In this document: in pieces, positions 612 to 5,562 of the stretch
How positions within the stretch are numbered: the first letter of the stretch is position 1
How the letters are laid out: each line of letters opens with the position of its first letter
IMG/VR virus record: IMGVR_UViG_2698536348_000004
DNA from: a virus
Taxonomy: Duplodnaviria > Heunggongvirae > Uroviricota > Caudoviricetes
DNA length: 12,440 nucleotides
Strand: one strand, 5' to 3'
Made by a program: the position numbers and the translations under genes
Notes under the pieces: generated by a model
What the model was told of the DNA's origin: nothing
What the model saw: only the letters and a program-made list of their open reading frames with translations
Database searches by the model: none

Positions 612-1370
612 TTAAATTCTGGTCCTTACAATATCAACCTGAAGATTCTTATCTTGTGCTGATTGATAAATGACAAACCTTTTACTACCTGCATTGAAAG
701 AAGTAGACAAAACCAGACAATTATCATAACGAGCAAGAACATAATACCAACCATCATTATAATTAATCATTTCATATTCTTTCTTAAACTGTGGTTTGTA
801 ATATCCTGTCAGAAATGAAAAAAGCCAGAAATATGCCACAAAAGCAATCATCACAATCTCAAAAAAATGTTTTTTTATAAATGGCTTATCATAGAAGCAT
901 GATACCGATAAAAATCGCCCATAAGATCTTATCGAAATTGTAACCGCCAGCGCAATCGCTGCTGACAGTAGCAAAAGAGGTACCTGAATCTTCTGTCTCA
1001 ATATAGAAAACTCAATAATTGCCGGCACAAACAATAATTCCACAGCAAAATAAAGGCGAAATACATTTAGCTCTTGCATAGAATGTTTTCTTTTCACTGC
1101 GAAAAAGAATACAACACCAATACCCCAACCGATAAGAAATATAGCAATGACGATAACTGCAAAAAATAAACTTCTGGCAACATCATCAACACCTGCACCT
1201 ACAATCCACCATGGGAAGCCGTAGTAAAAAGAAGTACCCCATCCATAGAAATAAGCACTCCCCCATCCAAGGCATCCCATGTAGGCAATAAAAAGTGAAG
1301 AACTCCTGAGCAGCGCACCATCCTTCATAACCACCCCAATACAAGATGATAACATTGGCTTACAACTCAT
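612..1370 (-). CDS. Polytopic inner-membrane protein (about five hydrophobic helices, rich in W/Y/F/G, roughly 60-aa soluble C-terminal tail); function unknown; moron-like
   Basis: 252-aa ORF, AT-rich, first gene downstream of the pR'-like promoter. Five long hydrophobic stretches in the translation. No clear SD at 1370; an internal ATG at 1328 (MKDGALL...) is an alternative start. Confidence 0.65.
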   Translation of the reverse strand: MSCKPMLSSCIGVVMKDGALLRSSSLFIAYMGCLGWGSAYFYGWGTSFYYGFPWWIVGAGVDDVARSLFFAVIVIAIFLIGWGIGVVFFFAVKRKHSMQELNVFRLYFAVELLFVPAIIEFSILRQKIQVPLLLLSAAIALAVTISIRSYGRFLSVSCFYDKPFIKKHFFEIVMIAFVAYFWLFSFLTGYYKPQFKKEYEMINYNDGWYYVLARYDNCLVLSTSFNAGSKRFVIYQSAQDKNLQVDIVRTRI

Positions 1371-1536
1371 AACAAAAGCAATTCAATGCCGTCAAGAGGT
1401 TACAGGCTAAAAAAACTCTATTACATTGCAGTCAGCATGTTTACTACACAAATACAATTCAGAGCATAAAAACTACTCGGCGGCAGGTTATTGAGACTCA
1501 TCAATGACATGTAAAAAACGCCCATTATTGATGTCA

Positions 1537-1565
1537 AGTTTCCCCAAAGTTATTCAAAAAGTCAA
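1537..1565 (-). promoter_or_regulatory. Late promoter pR'-like (Q-dependent), with the Q-utilisation region
   Basis: Minus-strand read TTGACT-N17-GAAACT immediately downstream of the Q stop, followed by TGACATCAATAATGGG. Resembles the lambda pR' segment as I recall it (TTGACTtattgaataaaattgggTAAATT). The -10 is weak. Confidence 0.45.
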
Positions 1566-1607
1566 TATTATGCCGTTAATATGTTGCCATCCGTGGCAAT
1601 CATGGCG

Positions 1608-2231
1608 CTAACGTGTGATCGCATTCAAAATGTTGTCTGCGATTGACTCTTCCTTGTGGCATTGCACAACCAGAGCGTCATACAGCGGCTTAACAGTGCG
1701 TGACCAGGTGGGTTGGGTAAGGTTTGGGATTAGCATCGTCACAGCGCGATATGCGGCGCTTGCTGGCATTCTTGAATAACCGACGCCTTTACATCTTCCG
1801 CACTCTTTCTCAGCAACTATCCCCCACTGCTCTGTTTTGGCTATATCAACCGCACGGCCTGTACCGTGGCAATCTCTGCATCTTGCGCCCGGCGTAGCAG
1901 CACTACGGCAATAATCCGCATAAGCGAATGTTGCGAGCACTTGCAGTACCTTTGCCTTAGTATTTCCTTCGAGCTTTGCCACACCACGGTATTTCCCCGA
2001 TACCTTGTGTGCAAATTGCATCAGATAGTTGATAGCCTTTTGTTTGTCGTTCTGGCTGAGTTCATGCTTACCGCAGAATGCAGCCATTCCGAATCCGGCT
2101 TGTGATTGCGCCATCCCCATAGCAGCCATCACATCAGTACCGGAAAGAGAGTCAGAAGCCGTAGCCCGTGGTGAGTCGCTCATCATCGGGCTTTTTGGCG
2201 AATGAAATTTAGCTACGCTTTCGAGTCTCAT
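1608..2231 (-). CDS. Q: Late-gene antiterminator Q (lambda Q type)
   Basis: 207 aa; starts MRLESVAKFHSPKSPMMSDSPR; Cys-rich zinc-binding segment CRDCHGTGRAV...CGRCKGVG. Near-identical to lambda Q as recalled. Start overlaps the ninH stop. Confidence 0.9.
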   Translation of the reverse strand: MRLESVAKFHSPKSPMMSDSPRATASDSLSGTDVMAAMGMAQSQAGFGMAAFCGKHELSQNDKQKAINYLMQFAHKVSGKYRGVAKLEGNTKAKVLQVLATFAYADYCRSAATPGARCRDCHGTGRAVDIAKTEQWGIVAEKECGRCKGVGYSRMPASAAYRAVTMLIPNLTQPTWSRTVKPLYDALVVQCHKEESIADNILNAITR

Positions 2232-2416
2232 CGTCTTCCCTTTTTGCCTGGCGTTACCATCAGGACGCCGTTAACTATTACGTGACGCTCACCTTTGCTG
2301 TCTCGGTTGTACTTGAGCACTGTTCCTCTTGCGCAGGAAAGTATCCTTGCCACTTCGGTCTGATTACCTCGTGTCTGGATAAGAAGCTCTGGTATCGTTT
2401 GAATTGTGGCGTTCAT
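2228..2416 (-). CDS. ninH: NinH-like small DNA-binding protein
   Basis: 62 aa; TIPELLIQTRGNQTEVARILSCARGTVLKY matches the lambda NinH pattern (TIPDMLVEAYGNQTEVARRLKCSRGTVRKY). Sits directly upstream of Q as in lambda. Confidence 0.8.
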   Translation of the reverse strand: MNATIQTIPELLIQTRGNQTEVARILSCARGTVLKYNRDSKGERHVIVNGVLMVTPGKKGRR

Positions 2417-2775
2417 ACGTTCTCCAGTTCGGTGATTTTTATTCCAAGCCGTCCGCCTGGTACTTTCACACCACGAATTACGCGAATGTCATCGAATTGC
2501 TCGTCGTCTTCCGCAAATCCGGCGTGGATAAGGGAGTCGAGTAAACCTTTCAGGATGTTATCGAGGTCGCGGCGGCGGGAGTCTGGAACGTCTGCTATGA
2601 CTTTGATGCGGAGTCGTGATTTGGTGAAAATATCTAACTTGAGTTGGTGGATGATTTGCTGAACGTCTTTTCGGTATTTCTGGCCTTTATCGCTGATGTA
2701 GTATTGGCTTCCCCGTCTTCGCCAGTAGGTATTCACCGACGGCGGGTATGGAAGCACAAACTGATATTCGTTCAT
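2413..2775 (-). CDS. rusA: Holliday-junction resolvase RusA
   Basis: 120 aa; motifs LPYPPSVNTYW, RRRDLDN, GGRLGIKITE typical of the RusA family; overlapping start/stop with neighbouring genes. Confidence 0.9.
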   Translation of the reverse strand: MNEYQFVLPYPPSVNTYWRRRGSQYYISDKGQKYRKDVQQIIHQLKLDIFTKSRLRIKVIADVPDSRRRDLDNILKGLLDSLIHAGFAEDDEQFDDIRVIRGVKVPGGRLGIKITELENV

Positions 2776-3062
2776 GACTTAATCTTCCCCTCCTTCAGCA
2801 GTATCGCCTGCGTCCTGATTACGCCTTCGAGGTGGTAAAGTCTGGCGTCTTTGTTGTCGAGATTATGGGTGCGTCTGTCGATTTCATCGTGACACGCGCT
2901 ACAAGCCCATGCGCCGATCAGGTCTTCAGGCTTCATTCCAGTTCCGCAAATTCCAGCCATCCGGTAATGTGCCAGAACTGTAGTTTCAGGATTGCCATTG
3001 CATATGCCGTAAATACGAACCTGGCATTCTCTGCCGCGTGCTTCTTTGCGTAGGTTAGCCAT
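2772..3062 (-). CDS. ybcO: DUF1364/YbcO-like Cys-rich nin-region protein (putative nuclease)
   Basis: 96 aa; RGRECQVRIYGICNGNPETTVLAH ... CSACHDEIDRR resembles DLP12 YbcO as recalled; translationally coupled to rusA. Confidence 0.65.
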   Translation of the reverse strand: MANLRKEARGRECQVRIYGICNGNPETTVLAHYRMAGICGTGMKPEDLIGAWACSACHDEIDRRTHNLDNKDARLYHLEGVIRTQAILLKEGKIKS

Positions 3063-3775
3063 TAAGCAGCCTCCCCTGTTACTTTCAGCATTCCGTTATC
3101 GAGCAGCTTTCTGGTCAGCCACTGTTGACCACGCCCGGTGATTTTTGTGGTGAACGATATCTGTATTCCGTGATTTGTGTTGACCGCTGTTTCTTTCACT
3201 GTGAAATAGCCGCGCTCCATATATTCCTGCATTGGCACATTTCGCCGGGAACCTGAAGCAATAAGGATTTTGTGATCACGCATCCACGCAAACAGTTTGT
3301 TTGGACCAATACCAACAACCTTTGCATAGTTTCCAATCAAAATTCCGCTGGCCTCGCCAACGCGATCGGCAAACTCAACTTTAGGTGCGGCAATTGCGAG
3401 CTGGTTTTCTAGTTGCATTTTCTGCTCAGCAAGATCAGCAGCAAGGCGTAACGCTTCTGGTAGCGTTTTTGGGATATTAACCGCAGCTTCTTCAAGCTCT
3501 CGCCAACGGTCAACAAGACGAGCGGTGAATTCCGGCGACAACTGGGCAACGACAATAATGCTGTCGCGCTTACCTTGTTCTCCTTCGAAGATGTAATAGC
3601 TTACCGGTCGGCCTGCGGTGGGCTTCTCCCCCATTGGGGGAAAAGCTATTACACCTCGTCCCGCCAGTCGTTCAATAGATTGTTTCACCTTGTCATGACG
3701 ACTTCCCACCAACTCAGCGATTTCAATGCTGGTCATTTTGATGGCGTTGCTATTTATCAGCTCATTCATTGTCAT
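3062..3775 (-). CDS. Phage antirepressor/regulatory protein (Rha-like N-terminal domain with KilA-C/ANT-like C-terminal domain)
   Basis: 237 aa; N-terminal TSIEIAELVGSRHDKVKQSIERL resembles the Rha family HTH segment; family call from motif memory. A second in-frame ATG at 3769 has better SD spacing (AGAGGA). Confidence 0.7.
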   Translation of the reverse strand: MTMNELINSNAIKMTSIEIAELVGSRHDKVKQSIERLAGRGVIAFPPMGEKPTAGRPVSYYIFEGEQGKRDSIIVVAQLSPEFTARLVDRWRELEEAAVNIPKTLPEALRLAADLAEQKMQLENQLAIAAPKVEFADRVGEASGILIGNYAKVVGIGPNKLFAWMRDHKILIASGSRRNVPMQEYMERGYFTVKETAVNTNHGIQISFTTKITGRGQQWLTRKLLDNGMLKVTGEAA

Positions 3776-3802
3776 GTCCTCTCATATTGAAAATTCAGCA
3801 AT

Positions 3803-3830
3803 AAAAAACCCAGCCGAAGCTGGGTTTGTT
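3803..3830 (-). terminator. Rho-independent terminator (bidirectional hairpin; stronger on the minus strand)
   Basis: Stem CCCAGC (3809-3814), loop CGAA, stem GCTGGG (3819-3824); minus-strand read is followed by TTTTTTAT, plus-strand read by TTTGTT. Confidence 0.7.
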
Positions 3831-3892
3831 AAGTTGTCAATGGTCAGTAGTAATGCAGTGAAGGAGGTAAACTTACGCTGAAGGATTTGTAC

Positions 3893-3920
3893 AAAAAAAC
3901 CACCTGAAGGTGGGTTACTG
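3893..3920 (-). terminator. Rho-independent terminator immediately after the stop of the 3921..4934 gene
   Basis: Minus-strand read CCACC-TTCA-GGTGG followed by TTTTTTT (plus 3893-3899 is an A7 run); begins one nucleotide after the stop codon at 3921-3923. Confidence 0.8.
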
Positions 3921-4934
3921 TTACTTGTCTGAATCATCCAGTTCGTCTGTTTTCACATCCTCAAACCTTGGATGCAGGCGATTCATTTTTGCAATAAAAT
4001 CTGAATAGTCGTTAGATAGCTTCATAATCGTAACGGTTGATGACAGATGCTCTCTTAATTTTTGATATCCAATATTTGGCGTCAGCCCCTGAAACAACTT
4101 TGTACCTTTTGAGGCCTTTACGTTCTGCTTTTTAAGCTCCTCAAGGATGTTTGGTGCCAATCTCTTGTAGACGATATCATTTGTCAAAACGCCAAAATAC
4201 TGAGGCCGGAAGCGGGGATTTTCCGGCGGGTATTCTAAGCCCCTTAACCTGAAAAGCTCTTCATAATAATCAGCAGGAAATGTTGTAATATAAGGTTGAA
4301 TTTCCTTTGCGACAAAGGCCTCGAGTATTTTGGCGAGCGCATCTTTTTCTCTATCTCGCTGGTACCCCGTCGCTTCATCAACAAGCGCTATTATTCCGAC
4401 TTTAGCTAATGAGCGCACCAGAATTTCAGCTTTCTTGGCTGTCTCTAACTGGTTTGGCCTGGTGATAGCGCCTGCCTCTCTTGCCTTTAAATAAACATCG
4501 CAGACAAGAGGTATTATGGATGCGTCATAACCTTCCTGGACGGAGCCAGTAATCGTCTTGTATTTGACCTTATTGATCACATCCATAACATCTTGATTTA
4601 TATATTTTTTAAGGTTTGCAGCATCCATAAAAGCGGGCATATTGATCACCCCCTCTTCTTGAGGTGCTCTACCCCCTCTTTGTGGTCGGCCAAATGCTTT
4701 AAAAACAGAAGCTTGTGATATGATACGCCGTCCATTTTCGAGAACCGCGACATCTAATTCCGCATCACCGATCTTTAACTTTCCCTCATTCGCAGATACG
4801 GGCAATAAAGCTTTTTCTTTTTTTGCGGCAACAGCCTTTCTTGAGGATTCTTTTCTTTGCTCTGCTGTCATTTTTGCCGCGCGTGCCTTACCGCCTTTGG
4901 CCTTCCCACTAACATCATCATTTTTCATGAGCAT
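3921..4934 (-). CDS. Hypothetical phage protein with a lysine/alanine-rich basic N-terminal region (possibly P63C-domain family, unverified); moron
   Basis: Track ORF 3921..4988, but the first 18 codons overlap a promoter and dyad elements, so the start is more likely ATG 4934 (MLMKNDD) or 4928. Own promoter upstream and terminator downstream. Confidence 0.7.
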   Translation of the reverse strand: MLMKNDDVSGKAKGGKARAAKMTAEQRKESSRKAVAAKKEKALLPVSANEGKLKIGDAELDVAVLENGRRIISQASVFKAFGRPQRGGRAPQEEGVINMPAFMDAANLKKYINQDVMDVINKVKYKTITGSVQEGYDASIIPLVCDVYLKAREAGAITRPNQLETAKKAEILVRSLAKVGIIALVDEATGYQRDREKDALAKILEAFVAKEIQPYITTFPADYYEELFRLRGLEYPPENPRFRPQYFGVLTNDIVYKRLAPNILEELKKQNVKASKGTKLFQGLTPNIGYQKLREHLSSTVTIMKLSNDYSDFIAKMNRLHPRFEDVKTDELDDSDK

Positions 4935-4959
4935 ATCTCGTGTTGTGATTGATAAGTCA

Positions 4960-5006
4960 ATCATACACATGCACGTTGTAACGTGCAATATTTAAATATG
5001 CACGTA
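4960..5006 (-). promoter_or_regulatory. Sigma70-like promoter for the 3921..4934 gene, overlapped by GCACGT dyad operator-like elements
   Basis: Minus-strand read TTGCAC (plus 4983-4988) - 17 nt - TATGAT (plus 4960-4965). Half-sites GCACGT at 4971-4976, ACGTGC at 4981-4986, GCACGT at 5000-5005 form two inverted repeats. Confidence 0.5.
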
Positions 5007-5151
5007 AATTGCGAATCAGATAATGAGGAGACTTTCTCCCCCTTGCACTGACATCATGGTATTCTGCTCAAAACTAAATTTCTGGAGCGTTTCGTTGGAA
5101 GGTATTTGCAGTTTTCGCAGATTATGTCGGTGATGCTTCGTCGCTGTCGTC

Positions 5152-5562
5152 TCATTCGTACCTCCTGTCGGTAAATCTGACACCCTGACCAATAGCCCAG
5201 GCTGTTGTGTACTCGATCAGACTTGCCATACGCTTCACGCTCATCTGCGCGCTGCTTTCGCGAATGTTGACGTATTCGCCTTCAAGCCCGGGCAAAACAT
5301 CAGCTTCCTGCTTTGTTGCCACTGCATGACCGCTAATCAACAAAACCTTCCATTGTTCTGGTTTTAACCACTTATCGCACCATTGAACCTGACGTGCGAT
5401 ATCCGCCAGCATCGCGTGAAATTTTGCGTTCTGGTCAAGGTTGCGCTTGTAGTCAGTAATGCGGATGGTGACTGGCTTGTCTTTATCGAGAGGAGTTGCG
5501 AGGATGGCGTTGATTGCGGCTTGCTGTTGTTGCTTAGTTCGGAGGAAGATTGTTTGCTTCAT
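5152..5562 (-). CDS. ninB: NinB (Orf-family recombination mediator)
   Basis: 136 aa; [20 protein letters not shown] and overall pattern resemble lambda NinB (RSLDQNRKLWACLGDVSRQVEW); GGAG SD; 2 nt after the upstream gene's stop. Confidence 0.8.

Follow-up and report, generated by a model that had tools for sequence, protein, structure and literature searches.

The P63C cassette in ninE

The stretch of DNA analysed here (12,440 nucleotides, IMG/VR virus record IMGVR_UViG_2698536348_000004, called the window below) covers the early region of a lambdoid prophage whose immunity genes are of the 933W type. Its minus-strand rightward operon comprises O, P, ren, two small open reading frames (ORFs), ninB (5152-5562), a gene encoding a P63C domain-containing protein, a Roi-like gene with pRha and ANT domains (3062-3775), ybcO, rusA, ninH and Q. 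The subject of this report is the P63C gene, which an earlier note on this DNA had described as a self-contained moron with its own promoter, operators and tandem terminators. It extends on the minus strand from 3921 to 4928 or 4934, encoding 335 amino acids plus a stop codon from the ATG at 4928-4926, or 337 amino acids from the ATG at 4934-4932. The gene is 99.4-99.5% identical at the nucleotide level to L0095 of the Stx2 phage 933W and of BP-4795, and its product is 99-100% identical to 933W L0095 (NP_049495; EDL933_1377), which carries the RefSeq name 'P63C domain-containing protein'. The L0095 gene is also found in Stx2-converting phage I, Lahn1 and Nil3.

The tentative link to the P63C family made in the earlier note is borne out, as residues 203-293 match the full Pfam profile (PF10546, positions 1-93), scoring 84.3 bits where the cutoff is 26.1 (E 9.2e-24), and all 40 aligned homologues match the same family. 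The protein also matches PHROG 2384 over its full length (E 1.8e-146, residues 5-336 against profile positions 2-337 of 338). Neither PF10546 nor PHROG 2384 has an assigned function, the latter being placed in the category 'unknown function', and L0095 itself is without a recorded function. The family comprises approximately 4,900 clusters at 50% identity. Its founder, p63 of Myxococcus phage Mx8, has 245 amino acids, whereas the proteins considered here are uniformly built of three parts, one of which, an N-terminal basic module, lies outside the Pfam model; the predicted structure of the window protein nevertheless matches the BFVD model of Mx8 p63 (E 2.6e-10). Pfam and NCBIfam searches at permissive thresholds with the window protein and its homologues gave nothing beyond P63C, and a sequence search of the PDB with the window protein detected no homologue (best E 0.47). 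There is no Nin-family match for the protein, although its neighbours do match NinB, NinH, YbcO and RusA.

Comparison of the leader regions suggests that translation starts at 4928, since a box in the ribosome-binding region, CACAACACGAGA (4936-4947, minus strand; conserved in the window and in loci L002, L012 and L013), is kept in the homologues and is followed by 7-8 nucleotides and then the ATG. The N-termini of the homologues also point to a start at 4928, or possibly at 4934. The ORF ending at 3921 is real, as had been claimed, but the length of 337 amino acids first given to its product probably gives way to 335, with 4934 as a possible alternative. The 349-residue RefSeq/PGAP model begins near 4970, inside the operator and promoter region, and its start is probably placed too far upstream.

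The gene is contained in an inserted cassette of approximately 1.2 kb (3867-5077, minus strand, with edges approximate to a few bases), which consists of a leader hairpin, operators and promoter, the gene itself and a terminator, t1. The upstream junction is a truncated ninE of 33 codons (5054-5155, minus strand), made up of 26 native codons, seven foreign codons and a stop. Its ATG at 5155 overlaps the ninB stop codon, homology to the ninE of VT2-Sakai ends after 5078, and PGAP calls the remnant a NinE pseudogene ('NinE family protein, missing C-terminus'). The DNA upstream of the gene, at first taken to be non-coding, is thus only partly so: about half of the 217 nucleotides between ninB and the gene belong to the ninE remnant. 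VT2-Sakai possesses an intact ninE and, in the same slot, a different gene annotated as Ant-like or hypothetical. When the segment 3780-5160 was used as a boundary query against 5,426 complete E. coli genomes, the whole cassette was found in 49, and the flanks in 2,179, where flank-only matches cover query positions 1 to approximately 83 and 1299 to 1381. The GC content is 0.39-0.46 in the cassette and 0.48-0.51 in its flanks. Because ninE is truncated, the GC content is lower, few genomes carry the cassette and its relatives occupy unrelated prophage slots, we regard it as an insert and not as a core nin gene; the earlier view of a self-contained insert in a variable slot is confirmed in this respect.

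The gene has the same position in 933W, between a ninE remnant and roi, but the surroundings differ. In 933W a dam methylase gene lies between ninB and the remnant, whereas in the window ninB abuts the remnant (5152-5155, compared with L001:5451-5978). Downstream of roi the window has ybcO-rusA-ninH and a lambda-type Q, where 933W has ninG-ninH-Q933W. The missing dam and the differing genes 3' of roi therefore indicate mosaic exchange on both sides of the cassette.

Promoter, terminators and expression

A putative sigma-70 promoter is located at 4960-4988 (minus strand), with a -35 element TTGCAC (4988-4983), a 17-nucleotide spacer and a -10 element TATGAT (4965-4960), and a predicted transcription start near 4953. 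The -10 element is good (five of six consensus positions) and the -35 element weak (three of six). Given this weak -35 and the failure of a strict consensus scan of the window to call the site, the evidence for this promoter is comparative and not intrinsic: the layout is conserved across unrelated insertion sites and recurs as TTGCAC-17-TATACT in a Chromobacterium locus (L136). What had been described as a good sigma-70 promoter therefore holds for the -10 element and the conserved layout, but not for the -35.

Three heptads spanning -52 to -17 relative to the predicted start overlap this promoter. Two of them (5005-4999 and 4987-4981) form the operator-like inverted repeat O1, ACGTGCA-N11-TGCACGT (4981-5005, minus strand, inverted repeat I16), which is centred approximately 40 bp upstream of the predicted start. 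The third, ACGTGCA (4970-4976, minus strand), is located in the promoter spacer, forms a further inverted repeat (I11, TGCACGTT/AACGTGCA) with 4980-4987, and is kept in sister cassettes. The composite element ACGTGCA-N11-TTGCACGTT-N3-ACGTGCA is found in four insertion contexts (the window, L002, L012 and L136, one of the encoded proteins being 58% identical), with invariant half-sites and variable spacers. It embeds TTGCAC, 17 nucleotides and a -10-like hexamer, and is followed by the leader box in the enterobacterial copies but not in Chromobacterium L136. The candidate operators of the earlier note are accordingly present, as three heptads that are conserved across unrelated insertion sites.

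Within the window alone the number of heptads is not significant (three compared with 1.5 expected). In positions 1-50000 of 933W (L142) there are likewise three copies of TGCACGT/ACGTGCA, all within a stretch of no more than 36 bp upstream of L0095, compared with 7.25 expected from dinucleotide-preserving shuffles; this scarcity may reflect avoidance of off-target sites or a general avoidance of palindromes. No further O1-like operator copy was found in these 50 kb, so that no phage regulon is visible. The sites are not operators of the 933W CI repressor, the sequences being different. Use of ACGTGCA-N11-TGCACGT as a probe of viral contigs returned 120 loci, of which 12 contained the gene, in each case in its 933W-type form, and the remainder were consistent with chance; because so few loci carried the gene, the exact pattern is not a useful probe.

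A second, perfect palindrome, TGATTGA-CTTA-TCAATCA (4946-4963, minus strand, inverted repeat I15), covers the -10 element and the predicted start. It is present only in the 933W-type cassette, being absent from L002, L012 and L136, and replaces the second operator of the Morganella copies. An FNR or CRP site was considered here and dropped: an FNR site reads TTGAT-N4-ATCAA, and the palindrome has TTGA-N4-TCAA. Further upstream, a weak hairpin without a T-run, GGAGA-AAG-TCTCC (5027-5039, minus strand), occupies the position at which the sister cassettes have a strong terminator, as L002, L012, L013 and L014 show a hairpin followed by T6 at the aligned position. In the window the weaker form would let transcription from pR pass.

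Downstream of the gene, a terminator scan calls both of the minus-strand terminators that had been proposed as a tandem pair. The first, t1 (CCACC-TTCA-GGTGG followed by T7; 3893-3913, stem 3913-3900), begins 7 nucleotides past the stop codon and belongs to the cassette. The second, t2 (3800-3827, stem 3827-3806), has a 9-bp stem, a UUCG loop and T6, and lies in phage backbone just upstream of roi. This assignment follows from the alignment with VT2-Sakai and the 5,426 E. coli genomes, as the t2 sequence is common to VT2-Sakai-type phages with another gene in the slot and precedes roi whatever the slot contains. Both terminators of the pair thus exist, but only t1 came with the gene. t2 folds at -15.1 kcal/mol (z = -3.8), and t1, whose stem has only 5 bp, is the weaker of the two (z = -1.6); the region contains nine terminator-like sites compared with 2.8 expected, and lambdoid pR operons carry terminators in the nin region in any case. 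As with tR2-tR4 of lambda, t1 and t2 are intrinsic terminators in the pR operon between P and Q that would require N-modified polymerase for expression of Q, although, unlike the lambda nin terminators, t1 arrived with a cassette. A small RNA between t1 and t2 was also considered and is unsupported, as an Rfam scan of 3800-5100 detected no RNA family.

Published expression data for the 933W prophage of EDL933 show that ciprofloxacin treatment for 2 h raised its early-right genes 56-100-fold, for example ninB 62.5-fold, dam 62.5-fold, roi 55.6-fold, ninG 58.8-fold and Q 66.7-fold (PMC11125564, Table S1). The gene corresponding to that of the window, EDL933_1377 ('Unknown protein'), rose 16.9-fold, which is 3-6 times lower than every neighbour, and its protein was detected by proteomics at both time points (1.4-fold and 17.7-fold) (PMC11125564, Table S1). 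Since the downstream genes roi, ninG and Q are induced 56-67-fold, polymerase reads through t1 and t2 on induction. The lower ratio of EDL933_1377 is compatible with a higher basal level from its own promoter, or with a different mRNA stability. In another published data set no reads at all are reported for the ORF that is annotated as lying between dam and roi, and the published expression data for lysogens are ambiguous.

Relatives, operator sequences and the N-terminal module

Relatives of the P63C protein with identities from 87% down to 54% are found at unrelated sites, each with its own upstream palindromes. In four loci (L002, L140, L156 and L159) the gene lies directly downstream of a cI-like S24 repressor gene, after the terminator of that gene, which is the position of rexAB behind cI in lambda. 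In Pseudomonas, Morganella and Gilliamella prophages it is located between tail genes, in some cases on the opposite strand and beside Arc/antirepressor modules; further copies occur in an accessory block of a Chromobacterium prophage and in a Pseudomonas chromosomal island. A terminator follows immediately after the stop codon in the gamma- and betaproteobacterial sister cassettes.

More distant representatives were collected in a cross-phylum scan with one genome per species, which yielded 80 relatives with 43-70% identity from Proteobacteria, Actinobacteria, Chloroflexi, Acidobacteria, Chlamydiae and other phyla. Even between E. coli and the Actinobacteria and Chloroflexi, 43-50% identity is kept. 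At 78 of these loci, an unbiased count of 7-mers over the 150 nucleotides upstream of the gene, relative to the rest of these loci, revealed a motif, ATGCAAGCAT, that is related to the window heptads and is enriched 50-77-fold across many phyla. The top 7-mer, GCAAGCA, is present in 120 copies in 49 loci (52-fold enrichment), and ATGCTTG is enriched 77-fold. In the generalised form TGCA[A/C]G[C/T], of which the TGCACGT of the window is a variant, the motif occurs 1.86 times per upstream window compared with 0.12-0.13 in control windows. The usual layout is an inverted pair 8-13 nucleotides apart, with one or two further copies near the -10 element or the ribosome-binding site.

The protein consists of three parts: a basic two-helix N-terminal module, an alpha/beta domain and a highly conserved helical P63C domain. 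A structure model built from a 150-sequence alignment has a mean predicted local distance difference test score (pLDDT) of 90; a model from 40 sequences had a pLDDT of 71 in the P63C domain. The basic module, GKAKGGKARAAKMTAEQRKESSRKAVAAKKEKA, comprises codons 8-40 (4809-4907, minus strand), with helices at residues 9-19 and 22-40 (pLDDT 93-96), and is proposed to be the operator reader. The Lys/Ala-rich N-terminal region had previously been taken to extend over about 80 residues; it is basic, but about 40 residues long, as a beta-rich domain begins at residue 44 in the structure model. In its fold the alpha/beta domain (codons 42-152; 4473-4805, minus strand) weakly resembles DNA-binding domains of the winged-helix and Bro-N types. 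Within the protein, conservation is highest in the P63C domain (ALVDEATGYQ...TFP..YYE...TND.VY.RLAP; 4056-4328, minus strand, as bounded by Pfam), and among sequences sharing 31-57% identity D184, E185, T187, G188, R193 and Y254 hardly vary. No solved homologue of this domain was found by sequence or by fold. Its conservation across phyla suggests either an enzyme or a partner that is itself universal. Some relatives lack the basic module and have at that position an HTH_3 domain (an XRE-type helix-turn-helix) or an IS1595-type zinc ribbon.

When loci were grouped by operator class and the alignment columns that track this class were sought, with a tree built from residue 45 to the end, the best column proved to be that of window residue 28 (S28), which lies in the stretch GGxARAxx(L/M)TxExRxE[I/S]AxxAA of the basic module. 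A central A in the operator is accompanied by Ile, Val, Leu or Phe at this residue in 44 loci, and a central C by Ser, Ala or Gly in 14, with no discordant locus, and the residue and the operator base have switched approximately six times independently on the tree. Further pairs of tail and operator, compared by eye, agree with this pattern (E-L-G with TGCCAG, E-F with CAAGTA). The only factor common to the cassettes across their hosts is the protein that they encode. Because residue 28 covaries with the central operator base and the protein is the sole shared factor, the N-terminus is most likely a sequence-specific DNA-reading module and the gene self-regulating, although it is from covariation that binding is inferred. 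The covariation also supports the nucleic-acid binding suggested earlier for the basic N-terminus.

In 17-18 of the 80 cross-phylum loci (approximately 20%) the P63C gene is situated between a divergent DDE transposase gene and a convergent gene for a protein of 75-95 amino acids. The transposase is distantly IS1-like (73 bits, below the 100-bit cutoff), and the units end in a 20-bp inverted repeat, GGTAGTGTCTCAGTTTGAAA, with target duplications of 8-10 bp. For example, in L180 the repeats at 924 and 4469 are flanked by CTGGCGGAGG, which delimits an element of 924-4488. Within these units three to four copies of ATGCAAGCAT are confined to the region between the transposase and P63C genes and are not found at the element ends. 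Phage-borne cassettes, including that of the window, show no such inverted repeats around them, the best candidates having 7-8 mismatches, which is the random level. Since both the transposon units and the repeat-free phage cassettes carry the P63C gene, the family travels, as cargo or as a component, with mobile elements of two kinds.

The IS1-like transposon, of approximately 2.3-3.6 kb, is present in several phyla (L172, L177, L180, L190, L204, L210, L220 and others); L165 contains a derivative that seemingly lacks the transposase, and L180 carries in addition a 318-residue ORF without a family match. The small protein gene is convergent and follows directly after the P63C gene (L173:4017-4268, L180:3981-4214 and 16 other loci). 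Its product gives no Pfam or NCBIfam match, but has a conserved N-terminus (MPKGPKGxKRPxDVIGNAV..IATGE) and a C-terminus, GGKARAxxLTPExRxEIAKKAAxKRW, with a pattern identical to that of the P63C DNA-reading module. The small protein could be a partner or a competitor at the same operators.

Regulation, function and alternative explanations

We consider that the gene is probably a horizontally acquired, transcriptionally insulated single-gene moron inserted in ninE of a 933W-like lambdoid prophage, whose own protein would regulate its promoter through the heptads; a role in conflict between mobile elements is a guess. As pictured from the sequence, the N-terminal module would bind the three TGCACGT heptads that overlap the sigma-70 promoter and so bring about autoregulation. 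The position of O1 near -40 is compatible with activation, while the site in the spacer, and in relatives the sites over the -10 element and the ribosome-binding region, should repress. This geometry predicts mainly steady-state repression, and a burst of expression on entry of the DNA into a cell without the protein. During lytic growth, N-modified polymerase from pR would also transcribe the gene, passing t1 and t2. The P63C domain may then exert a conflict function, either keeping out or combating other phages or mobile elements, or interfering with the regulators of these, a guess that we make because relatives are found in the prophage slots classically taken by accessory and defence genes, and also on a transposon.

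The moron concept is reportedly due to Hendrix and colleagues, and the likeness consists in an extra gene between conserved neighbours, with a promoter-like element, a terminator and deviant GC content, which is absent from close relatives; the sister copies behind cI, moreover, share the position of lambda rexAB. Lambdoid morons and lysogen-expressed accessory genes are exemplified by rexAB, bor and lom of lambda. Unlike these classical examples, the cassette carries conserved operators, appears to be self-regulating and occurs far outside the lambdoid phages. In its use of several short palindromic sites over its own promoter it resembles lambda CI at PRM/OR and Tn3 TnpR at res, and in the transposon relatives the sites lie between the divergent transposase and P63C genes. 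Neither in sequence nor in fold is the protein related to CI or to serine recombinases, however, and a two-helix basic module differs from a classical helix-turn-helix, so that this is a likeness of how the system may work and not of membership.

Several observations weigh against this explanation. The -35 element is poor and the promoter escapes a strict scan; a canonical terminator is present in only 9 of the 80 cross-phylum relatives; and the palindrome at 4946-4963 is unexplained by autoregulation. The covariation could reflect a co-transferred factor, though the cassette encodes only one protein. Whether autoregulation would be negative, positive or both is not readable from the sequence. 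The PADLOC-DB 2.0 defence models gave only a chance-level match (E 0.006); the lysogen-expressed accessory or defence gene put forward in the earlier note is a guess, and a conflict role is thus deduced from genomic position, namely rexAB-like and tail-cluster hot spots and carriage on a transposon.

Alternatively, the protein might be an antirepressor- or transcription-factor-type regulator of a repressor, of prophage DNA or of host promoters, which tunes induction or host expression rather than excluding invaders; we view this as a possible but rather unlikely explanation. P63C is reportedly defined in Pfam as a C-terminal module of the shuffled KilA-N/Bro-N-type regulators of DNA viruses, and the window protein is like these regulators, and like P22 Ant and HK022/933W Roi, in being a modular viral protein with a DNA-binding-like alpha/beta domain and a shuffled C-terminal module. 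It also matches PHROG 2899 ('anti-repressor Ant'), though weakly (E 0.0027), and the fold matches of its alpha/beta domain are to DNA-binding domains, although these too are weak. The neighbours are repeatedly antirepressor modules, namely roi here and Arc with P22_AR_N in Pseudomonas and Morganella, and the slot between ninE and roi holds an Ant-like gene in VT2-Sakai-type phages, but such neighbours may merely mark shared accessory hot spots. No hidden Markov model (HMM) match to ANT/KilAC, P22_AR_N, P22_AR_C or Bro-N was obtained for the protein, and the Bro-N, KilA-N and pRha HMMs found nothing at E values up to 5 in 40 members of the family. Profile comparison by hhalign with the neighbouring Roi protein (pRha and ANT) gave a probability of 0.1%, which indicates no relationship. 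The lack of another O1-like site in 50 kb of 933W also speaks against such a regulator, and 43-50% identity between phyla is unusual for a protein that targets the repressor of one phage.

It is also conceivable, but improbable in our estimation, that the protein serves DNA transactions for mobility, working as an enzyme or architecturally on the repeats upstream of its gene, as a resolvase-like, transposition-regulating or homing-type protein, and that the phage copies are domesticated or selfish passengers. The transposon units with their terminal inverted repeats and target duplications favour such a role, and the three to four repeats between the transposase and P63C genes are reminiscent of Tn3, in which a res site accompanies tnpR. 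These repeats are, however, on one side of the gene only, and they overlap the promoter in the manner of operators. The IS1595-type zinc ribbon fusions (Zn_ribbon_IS1595) of some relatives and the invariant polar residues D184, E185, T187, R193 and Y254 point in the same direction, but the protein shows no similarity to recombinase, nuclease or transposase families in Pfam, NCBIfam or PDB and fold comparisons. The sharp cassette edges at many unrelated phage sites could likewise be attributed to mobility, although ordinary phage mosaicism accounts for the spread, and the phage-borne cassettes retain no remnants of the inverted repeats. A bolder form of this proposal, to which we give equally little credence, holds that P63C is a new class of DNA-transaction enzyme or architectural protein acting at its own ATGCA(A/C)G(C/T) repeats, for example an IS1-like resolvase or transposition controller, or a self-spreading one-gene element; the 933W cassette would then be a minimal selfish module and not a phage accessory gene. 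A less radical reading would make P63C a new single-gene anti-phage defence family that extends across many phyla.

Finally, it is very unlikely that this is an ordinary delayed-early gene transcribed only from the pR-N operon, with palindromes that are bound by a host factor or functionless and with generic nin-region terminators, since the upstream element is conserved outside pR operons (on the opposite strand in tail clusters, downstream of the cI terminator and inside a transposon), no host factor spans Chlamydiae to Actinobacteria, the covariation of protein and operator speaks against a host factor, and the induction ratio in EDL933 is 3-6 times below that of every neighbour.

Elsewhere in the window, the block downstream of cI (9659-11569, plus strand) matches defence models. 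It contains a 113-residue ORF that matches the candidate system PDC-S43 (E 5e-42), a 348-residue Ser/Thr kinase (stk of 933W) that matches the PD-T4-6 and mad6 models (E values down to 7e-50) and, between these, a 153-residue ORF annotated as RuvC-like in 933W that has no defence-model match. Downstream of Q, at the place of stx in Stx phages, there is a strongly hydrophobic ORF of 252 residues (612-1370, minus strand), for which Pfam, NCBIfam and PADLOC gave no match. At 152-357 on the minus strand the Rfam model of the small RNA STnc100 matches below its threshold (37.7 bits compared with a gathering score of 47, E 2.4e-5).

L0095, labelled 'hypothetical protein' since 1999, belongs to the early-right operon of Shiga-toxin phages of clinical importance, with the replication genes on one side and Q, which turns on toxin production, on the other. 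The ORF itself was already annotated and elements of this kind are known; the novelty seems to lie in the self-regulatory module and its operator code, and in how widely the family is distributed. Together, the N-terminal module and the operators may constitute a compact and apparently undescribed DNA-recognition system, in which residue S28 is predicted to set specificity: the substitution S28I would shift the preference from TGCACGT to TGCAAGC, and the reverse change would be expected to do the opposite in a relative of the TGCAAGCA class. Carriage by both prophages and transposons suggests a function of general value to mobile elements, and if this function is phage exclusion or interference with regulators, a widespread family would be added to the known repertoire.

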